Assembly (NCBI GenBank): GCA_048882485.1
Contig: JBHLRP010000012.1
Span: 1 to 64,000, forward strand
Length of the DNA: 64,000 bases
DNA from: Candidatus Thorarchaeota archaeon
GTDB taxonomy: Archaea; Asgardarchaeota; Thorarchaeia; Thorarchaeales; Thorarchaeaceae
Reading direction: 5' to 3'
Each line of letters begins with the position of its first letter. Position 1 is the first letter of the stretch. The position numbers and the translations under genes were made by a program. The notes under the pieces were generated by a model that saw only the letters and a program-made list of their open reading frames with translations, searched no databases and was not told the DNA's origin. Shown piece after piece: positions 31,903 to 33,466 of the stretch.

Positions 31903-32352
31903 TTATTCAAAGCCTGAAATTTTGATTGAACTCTGGGGGTCTGAATAGCTTCTTACCTCCATAATTCTGGCTCCAAATCCTCCAACAACACCGCTCAGAA
32001 ACCAGATCTGATAGATTAGGGAAACATAAGTCAAGTTTGCCAAAGGACTCCAGCCAAGATCTGCTCCCAGACTGCTCCAGACGAGCATGTCCACAGCTGA
32101 TGTAAGAACCATGAAAATGACTCCTGCTGACATTCCCTTGACCAACGCGCATATTTGGAATCTGAGACTGCATCCACCACCGACTAGATTCCGAAAGGTT
32201 ATTGGGATTATGGCAAGTGGGACTCCGATGAGGTAAACGGACCAATAGTGGGCTTCCCCCACAAGTATTGTAACAATCAGAAGGGATGCATACACAGCAA
32301 TCCAGTATTTTGGAATCCATAGCCAAGACTTGATCTCTTCGAATGCTTCCAC
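31903..32352 (-). CDS. 4-TM membrane protein
   Basis: Hydrophobic helices, GGGCS loop. Confidence 0.7.
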   Translation of the reverse strand: MEAFEEIKSWLWIPKYWIAVYASLLIVTILVGEAHYWSVYLIGVPLAIIPITFRNLVGGGCSLRFQICALVKGMSAGVIFMVLTSAVDMLVWSSLGADLGWSPLANLTYVSLIYQIWFLSGVVGGFGARIMEVRSYSDPQSSIKISGFE

Positions 32353-32400
32353 TATATTTCACTTAGTCTACGGATTTGAAATTCCCTTAATCATATCTTT

Positions 32401-32640
32401 GGTGTAGCAAACAAAAAAGAGCAAAACAACAACGTCAAAAGGAGCTTTGCCATACACAGGGTGACCCAATCCACGGTTCGAAAGGAGAGTCCTTTCATCC
32501 GGAATCAGAAGGAGGAAGATTTCGGAATGGTGATAATAATGCGCCTTTTTGTTGTCAGGACCGTCTTTGAACCGTGGACGGTCACGCAAATATCATGGGC
32601 ATATTCCTAAAAAAGGAGGAATATCTGCGCATTTTCTCTT
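32401..32640 (+). ncRNA. Putative structured non-coding RNA of unknown family
   Basis: Five nested or adjacent helices with G-U pairs only on the + strand; TATA-like tttgaaat about 26 nt upstream; U-rich 3' end. Confidence 0.65.
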
Positions 32641-32659: not shown

Positions 32660-33466
32660 CTATTTGAAGAGATTAAGAAGGGTCTTGATGTGATCAATGA
32701 TCAATAGTCCTGGAGGCGCCTTCTCTGCCTTCCCTTCTCTCTCCCAAGTTATCAGAATTGGAGTCATCTGAGCCCTGCGTGCAGCCTCAACATCCAGTTC
32801 TATGAAGTCTCCTATGAATACGCATCTCATGGGGTTAATGCTCATGTGTCTTGATATCTTCAGTAGCATATAGGGTGACGGTTTCTTATAGCCTGGAACC
32901 ATTGAGTGTTCCACTGCTTCAAAGAGGTCAAAGATGGAGTCTCGCTTCAGAATTCCCGAAGGGTCCTCCCAGCGATTTGAGGCCAATCCCAGCTTGTATC
33001 CCCTTGTATGAAGATTCTCTAAGACTTCTTTACAACCTGGAATGAGAGTGGATTGCCAGGGTATCACTGTCGCTTCCCATCTCTCAGTTATCTCATTGGC
33101 TAACCTATCGAGTTCGGTGGACACTCCAAGGGAACTCAGCATTCTCCTTCCGTACTCCACCCAAAGGTCATGGGAAGGATTCCATCTTGAATGAACTCCC
33201 TCTGAAATCATGTATTCATTCATCCAAGTCCTGGCAGTTAGAAACGCCTGTTCCAGCTTTTGATCCGAACAAGATGCCAATTCATCAAGTCCGAGCTCTT
33301 GGAGCCATATGCGTGTCAGATTGGATACCCAGATATCAGAACGATAGAGTGTGTCATCAAGGTCAAAGATGATCCCTTTGACCATATCGAGAGATGTCAT
33401 TACATGGGAGTCCGAAAGAAACCACCTAATCAACATTCTCCAAAATAGGAGGGAATCCAAGGGCAC
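32660..33466 (-). CDS. HAD-superfamily hydrolase (true start probably ~33385-33403)
   Basis: FDLDDTL, LASN, KKPSP, FIGDFIELD. Confidence 0.9.
   Translation of the reverse strand: MPLDSLLFWRMLIRWFLSDSHVMTSLDMVKGIIFDLDDTLYRSDIWVSNLTRIWLQELGLDELASCSDQKLEQAFLTARTWMNEYMISEGVHSRWNPSHDLWVEYGRRMLSSLGVSTELDRLANEITERWEATVIPWQSTLIPGCKEVLENLHTRGYKLGLASNRWEDPSGILKRDSIFDLFEAVEHSMVPGYKKPSPYMLLKISRHMSINPMRCVFIGDFIELDVEAARRAQMTPILITWEREGKAEKAPPGLLIIDHIKTLLNLFK

Follow-up and report, generated by a model that had tools for sequence, protein, structure and literature searches.

A predicted RNA gene in a 307-nt gap

What occupies the 307-nt gap between a gene for a small hydrophobic protein and a HAD hydrolase gene in the window, that is, in the whole 64,000-nt stretch of DNA analysed here? 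The window belongs to G000, a genome of the Thorarchaeota (Asgard archaea), which serves as the reference row in all homologue comparisons. A first-pass annotation had drawn attention to a gap of about 300 nt with a series of motifs and helices, and all of these are present in G000 at the coordinates assigned to them. The gap very likely contains an RNA gene whose product, about 220 nt long, is folded, non-coding and uncatalogued, and we hold with good confidence that this predicted gene is a stand-alone sRNA gene on the plus strand. The literature search found no paper on this RNA, nor on small RNAs of Thorarchaeota. The gene and its neighbours are as follows.

31903..32352, minus strand: the 4-TM gene of the first-pass annotation, divergent from the RNA and encoding a hydrophobic protein of 149 aa with no Pfam match
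32414..32635, plus strand: predicted RNA, about 220 nt, with both ends predicted and an alternative 5' end near 32402
32660..33466, minus strand: convergent HAD hydrolase gene

Homologues of the 4-TM gene occur in 57 of the 86 genomes of the Thorarchaeota family. The element itself is present in one copy in G000, and the homologue set comprises 15 distinct sequences, all in the same genomic place and all from one sub-clade of one Thorarchaeota genus. In many relatives, a histidine-phosphatase gene is interposed between the HAD hydrolase gene and the RNA. The element is retained whether its right-hand neighbour is the HAD hydrolase or the histidine phosphatase and, because that neighbour differs among loci, is independent of it. 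The phosphatase gene has been lost from G000 and G005, and downstream of the RNA in G011 (L011:rc 1810-1900) it is reduced to a short remnant.

Selection in the absence of a coding signal

The whole element is 82-95% identical to G000 among the homologues and its core (32459-587) 88-98%, whereas four-fold sites in four neighbouring genes are 48-81% identical, with the minimum in the farthest rows; the difference between the conservation of the element and that of the four-fold sites has P values from 1e-7 to 1e-20. Between G000 and G015, the RNA core is 95% identical and the SRP RNA 96%. As judged from these alignments, the element is under purifying selection that leaves no coding signal, and the conservation of its core is close to that of SRP RNA.

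Two reading frames might have accounted for this constraint. On the minus strand, a 73-aa ORF (32368-32589) is truncated in 13 of the 15 homologues and has no start in nine. The plus strand carries a shorter one.

32527..32610, plus strand: short internal reading frame with starts at 32527, 32530 or 32539 and a stop in the P5 loop; its peptide is unconserved

As a conserved peptide, this micro-ORF was rejected on a pN/pS of 0.5-0.7, like that of other frames, and it is frameshifted in L109 and L111 and stopped early in G005 and L054. Neither ORF is conserved, and the constraint lies at the level of RNA. It is thus very unlikely that the element is a structured mRNA for a peptide of 23-27 residues, whether type I toxin-like or a leader, even though SD motifs and in-frame start codons are present, the frame stays open for at least 16 codons in all 15 homologues and, among the first seven rows, all four variable sites in 32560-86 fall at third positions. 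In addition to the pN/pS and the broken frames, the peptide has no membrane helix, and there is no same-strand downstream gene that attenuation could act on.

Fold and strand of the predicted RNA

The G000 sequence folds at -79.5 kcal/mol, with z scores of -3.97 on the plus strand and -4.33 on the minus strand; because the latter is as strong as the former, G000 alone leaves the strand unfixed. In 15 of 15 homologues, the plus strand is the stabler, by a mean of 12 kcal/mol, a support weakened by the general tendency of G-rich strands to fold better. One-sided changes in the helices are swaps among G-U, G-C and A-U pairs on the plus strand. The proposal that G-U pairs favour this strand therefore agrees with the homologues on both counts, since all fold better on it and the swaps are helix-compatible there. 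Together with the conservation, this strand-biased folding bears out the broader claim of a conserved, probably independent plus-strand RNA. The parts of the predicted RNA, from 5' to 3', are these.

32414..32458, plus strand: A/C-rich leader, largely unpaired, containing AAC repeats and the first of the AAGGAG motifs, kept in 10/15
32461..32585, plus strand: long irregular helix P2 (32461-66/32580-85, 32470-82/32566-78, 32489-92/32558-61), 92-99% paired in 15 homologues
32498..32526, plus strand: hairpin P3, 99% paired, with 32499-32527 invariant in 15/15 and an 11-nt purine loop (32507-17) containing AAGGAGG
32530..32548, plus strand: near-invariant junction segment, of which 32538-43 could join the 3' tail in a candidate pseudoknot
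32586..32600, plus strand: linker of variable sequence, 15 nt long in 14/15
32601..32635, plus strand: hairpin P5 (32601-08/32617-24), 95% paired, with an invariant A-rich loop, conserved tail and U-tract

P2, P3 and P5 emerged from the comparison as proposed, with 92-99% of their pairs kept in the 15 homologues (P2a 99%, P2b 99%, P2c 92-98%), though with no compensatory change. The first-pass annotation had recommended that syntenic regions be compared for covariation; the three helices hold up across the 15 homologues, but two-sided changes are absent from each of them and the covariation score of the conserved helices is no better than that of shuffles. These helices are thus compatible with the alignment, short of proof. 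Columns predicted to be paired are invariant in 65 of 74 cases and unpaired columns in 72 of 146. The P3 stem-loop is wholly invariant, including one G-U pair, and is missing from energy-only predictions in five homologues.

Other pairings in the first-pass annotation fared less well. P1 is 68% paired across the 15 homologues and predicted in G000 alone, while P4 is 81-85% paired and predicted in 4 of 15. A kissing loop between CCTTTTT and the P5 loop is 77% paired, and the alternative pairing of ctttttgtt with the P1 loop, on which a switch had been suggested, 49%. An alternative register of P1, which showed an apparent compensatory pair in seven rows, was discarded at 15 rows, where it is 91% paired and broken in L109, L115 and L117.

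The proposed pseudoknot (32538-44/32627-33) stood in part: it is 94% paired with five pairs constant, but two pairs are broken in some rows, and the 15 homologues show no covariation for it. From the alignment, the AATGCG/CGCATT pairing is compatible with the data and a candidate. The conserved 3' tail needs a partner, for which there are two candidates, namely this pseudoknot with 32538-43 and a 5'-3' helix (32402-07/32625-30) that is 99% paired in the 15 homologues. The near-constant 15-nt linker may fit as a tether for the pseudoknot.

Promoter and transcript ends

Two conserved features lie between the 4-TM gene and the predicted RNA.

32386..32394: TATA-type box (CTTAATCAT), probably used on the minus strand for the 4-TM gene, with predicted plus-strand use for the RNA
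32396..32406, minus strand: upstream element of the 4-TM gene promoter, which includes the 5' arm of the P1 proposed in the first-pass annotation

The TATA box is probably used both ways. It has the best plus-strand matrix score in five of seven homologues, comes second in G014 and is displaced by an insertion in G015, scores that come from a genome-derived, crude and partly circular promoter matrix. (A sigma-70 scan, which is unsuited to an archaeon, was also applied.) The box resembles the tRNA promoters of G000. The TATA-like tttgaaat (32375-82) favoured earlier is unconserved and has a poor matrix score. In tRNA genes and in an sRNA family unrelated to this one, the distance from such a TATA to the start is 28-30 nt or more. 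With this calibration we predict a start near 32414, in which case neither P1 nor the 5'-3' helix would be transcribed. A start near 32402 is a possible alternative, because the 5'-3' helix fits so well (99%). The segment 32396-406 belongs to the 4-TM promoter, since 22 loci without the RNA also conserve it upstream of the 4-TM gene. Apart from the RNA, positions 32386-32406 of the window constitute a 4-TM gene promoter that is conserved family-wide. At the 3' end, the U-tract held up, with four U at 32632-35 invariant in 15 homologues.

In G015, a 204-nt TnpB-end element separates the shared promoter from the RNA: it has inserted at 32401, exactly at the point between them, has the same orientation and may supply the RNA with a promoter. 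This insertion (L015:1562-1766) is non-autonomous, is of the IS200/IS605 type and corresponds to the right end of a TnpB gene. Related copies are found at L057-L070 (L060 in G000), with copies in G012, G013 and G014.

That the gap makes no independent RNA, and is instead a DNA element, an element of a minus-strand 3' UTR or the remnant of a recently domesticated mobile element, is unlikely. The TATA box is already accounted for by the divergent 4-TM gene, the element appears abruptly in one clade, a TnpB-type insertion marks the site in G015, and the G000 minus-strand z score matches that of the plus strand. Against this, the element is single-copy, independent of the upstream minus-strand gene and biased to the plus strand in its G-U pairs; the promoter matrix finds no conserved minus-strand promoter at its right end; and more than 200 nt are under selection with helix-compatible changes.

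Distribution and origin

BLAST and covariance models located the element in five further genomes, all of the same genus, and no copy elsewhere among the 85 family genomes. Under stricter filters, the covariance models gave no homologue in the 80 other family genomes, and a sensitive covariance search of five genomes gave none. Nor was any homologue found in a phylum sample of 151, where the two best weak matches were unlike the RNA on inspection. Pattern matches in bacterial and viral contigs failed to extend, and BLAST against phage and plasmid sequences returned short chance matches only. Contigs of two sequencing runs show only relatives at 95-99% identity.

Homologues of the 4-TM protein at 71-99% identity group in one clade, beneath which lies an identity gap. 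Every member of this clade with upstream DNA to inspect has the element at the same place, and all 24 loci of more distant 4-TM homologues are without it. SRP RNA, at 83% identity, is readily detected in the outgroups of the genus, so an equally conserved outgroup copy of the element would probably have shown up. Given its presence in one sub-clade and its absence from the distant 4-TM loci and outgroups, the element was, on sequence grounds, most likely gained in the ancestor of the sub-clade. G001 is a clade member by its SRP RNA and lacks the whole locus; its genome is 62% complete.

Two further observations concern the relatives. The P0021 contig (SRR15144438) has a 4-TM homologue at 64% identity with a 288-nt upstream gap, the size found at RNA-bearing loci, and this gap may hold the most divergent homologue of the RNA. 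The SRP RNAs of G002 (G002:C203) and G011 (G011:C12) are only 77-78% identical to that of G000, whereas the flanking DNA at the present locus is about 87% identical and the SRP RNA of G015 96%; the discrepancy points to either misbinning or a second SRP lineage.

Comparison with known RNA classes

Rfam 15 gave no match at the gathering score (best E 2.5), as the earlier claim of novelty required. That claim also held the RNA to be unlike SRP RNA, RNase P RNA and tRNA, and none of these classes matches. There is no match to the archaeal SRP RNA model RF01857, the SRP RNA of the genome being on C58, and its archaeal RNase P RNA (RF00373) is on C110. As for tRNA and tmRNA, ARAGORN returned none, the P5 loop is A-rich, T-loop and G3-U70 are absent, and no SmpB was found in the genome. 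The S-domain of SRP RNA is a long helix ending in a junction, and tmRNA carries a short reading frame that terminates inside the loop of a hairpin. The predicted RNA likewise has a long helix leading to a junction and a frame that stops in such a loop, close to a possible 5'-3' helix, but differs in the points just listed.

CsrB/RsmZ-type sponges carry repeated AGGA/GGA motifs that imitate ribosome-binding sites. The predicted RNA also repeats AGGA/GGA motifs, one of them in a hairpin loop; this class was rejected because a single motif is invariant, the rest being variable or paired, and CsrA was not found in the 90.5% complete genome. A Y RNA was discarded with Ro60/TROVE in 0 of 17 genomes. 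A template RNA, proposed earlier alongside a scaffold, fails together with retron and DRT RNAs, as no RT was found in G000 or in the five other RNA-bearing genomes. In G000, none of Hfq, CsrA, SmpB, Ro60 and RT was found. A type I toxin mRNA was set aside on frameshifts, early stops and the missing coding signal, and a riboswitch or attenuator because the gene downstream on the plus strand is convergent in all loci.

Archaeal C/D and H/ACA guides (PMC6009581, PMC7991803) resemble the predicted RNA in the K-loop-like apical loop of P3 and a box C-like RUGAUAA. In contrast to them, it is four times the length of a C/D RNA (220 nt versus about 50 nt) and lacks a CUGA box D, an ACA-type box at 14-16 nt (AUA lies 7 and 10 nt from P3), a lower stem and a pocket. 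Unlike guide RNAs, it has no complement in rRNA beyond 11 nt of near-perfect pairing.

As in stand-alone archaeal sRNAs, the element is a conserved non-coding intergenic sequence with promoter and terminator signals, the promoter being shared and its plus-strand use predicted. It is most aptly treated as a new and unclassified family of such sRNAs with a narrow range. Methanosarcina mazei sRNA162 (PMC3510493) is similar in being intergenic, about 200 nt long, built of stem-loops with conserved unpaired segments, and lineage-restricted. The two do not match in sequence, however, and sRNA162 masks a ribosome-binding site through base pairing, whereas the predicted RNA displays an SD and no target above chance was found for it.

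Shine-Dalgarno motifs and possible mechanisms

G000 has four AAGGAG in 240 nt where 0.105 are expected (P 5e-6, post hoc). All four that had been reported are present, yet from 5' to 3' they are kept in 10/15, 7/15, 15/15 and 12/15 homologues, so that only the copy in the P3 loop is invariant. A sponge with four equivalent motifs, as first suggested, is thus not supported; three are variable, and some of the SD-like sites are part of helices. The P3-loop motif is of SD type and also K-loop-like. Its AAGGAGG is complementary to the 16S tail, which in this clade is a canonical anti-SD (CCUCCU end), and is fully unpaired in the G000 ensemble. Complementarity to 16S, 23S, SRP and RNase P RNA is unremarkable, the 16S tail excepted. 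SD motifs are in use in the G000 genome, and 4-5 anti-SD-pairing sites per RNA compare with 1.2-2.1 in shuffles in 14 of 15 rows (the rows being kin).

Because an invariant unpaired loop matches the 16S tail, SDs are in use and anti-SD sites are enriched, our leading reading, tentatively held, is that the RNA may be a decoy displaying a Shine-Dalgarno loop to ribosomes. The mechanism that we infer, from transcription and transcript ends to pseudoknot and ribosome binding, would run as follows. Transcription on the plus strand would begin at the back-to-back promoter common to the 4-TM gene and end at the U-tract. P2 would support hairpin P3 and the invariant single-stranded junction, to which a fixed-length tether may return the 3' tail as a pseudoknot. 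The RNA would then imitate a translation-initiation region, with an exposed AAGGAGG loop followed by start-codon-like triplets, and pairing of this loop with the CCUCCU end of 16S rRNA would occupy or park small ribosomal subunits; any peptide produced from the RNA would be incidental. Position 32530 always begins GTG or ATG in the 15 homologues, and GTGAT-4 nt-ATG sits at the peak spacing of the G000 genome. Counting against a decoy, the ATG at 32527 is lost in 6 of 15, and the GGAGG-to-start spacing of 11 or 14 nt is above the 7-10 nt peak. A more specific form, a pseudoknotted RBS decoy whose SD loop is perhaps L7Ae-gated and which would hold 30S subunits with no functional peptide, is improbable as a whole. 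To our knowledge, an archaeal 30S-decoy RNA has no precedent.

Close behind the SD decoy ranks a protein scaffold or decoy made by the same RNA gene, a doubtful but serious possibility in which L7Ae would sit on a P3 K-loop and an Sm-like or other protein on the leader, junction and U-tail. The invariance of the P3 stem-loop, G-U pair included, exceeds what SD display needs; its loop permits sheared G-A pairs in tandem, with A-A and G-C closing them; 32530-36 reads RUGAUAA, near box C; and G000 has two L7Ae-family genes. L7Ae binds K-loops (PMC7991803). The tandem GA nevertheless appears in 22% of permutations of the P3 loop, the loop above it is 5 nt versus the 7 nt or so described for K-loops, and of other partners Hfq was found in 0 of 17 genomes and neither CsrA nor Ro60 was found.

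It is rather unlikely that the RNA regulates mRNAs by base pairing or sponges the anti-SD sRNA siblings present across the family. Pairing would use its invariant unpaired segments, and sRNA162 provides a precedent by masking a ribosome-binding site (PMC3510493), but a target screen of 5' regions and intergenic sequences gave none above shuffled controls, and exact 12-mer matches are at chance level. For a sponge, the precedent is CrfA, which sponges its anti-SD siblings SisA-D in Caulobacter (PMC12559287). Here, too, an SD-displaying RNA could bind siblings, as 72 of 86 family genomes carry a multi-copy sRNA whose loop is a C-rich anti-SD, with two copies in G000. Unlike the Caulobacter case, the complementarity is 6 bp, no better than shuffles, and no Hfq was found; moreover, the anti-SD sRNA is distributed more widely than the sub-clade of the RNA. 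There is a small chance that some reading outside all of these is the right one.

An RNA of single sub-clade origin with a core about as tight as SRP RNA is a clear example of strong selection on a young RNA gene. Should it titrate ribosomes or be gated by L7Ae, it would represent translational control with no known archaeal precedent, a significance limited by the narrow range and the absence of covariation.

The anti-SD sRNA family carries a TATA of its own and an invariant loop that is the complement of SD plus AUG; its G000 copies lie at G000:C43:11925-12045 (L128:1425-1545) and G000:C16:19850-19945 (L127:1350-1445). Its sequence makes it a strong candidate for a general regulator of translation or a mimic of the 16S tail. 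In G015, the 16S match (L102, G015:C82:4569-6699) is about 630 nt longer than usual and its 3' end is without the CACCUCCU tail, possibly owing to an intron or a 3'-end insertion.
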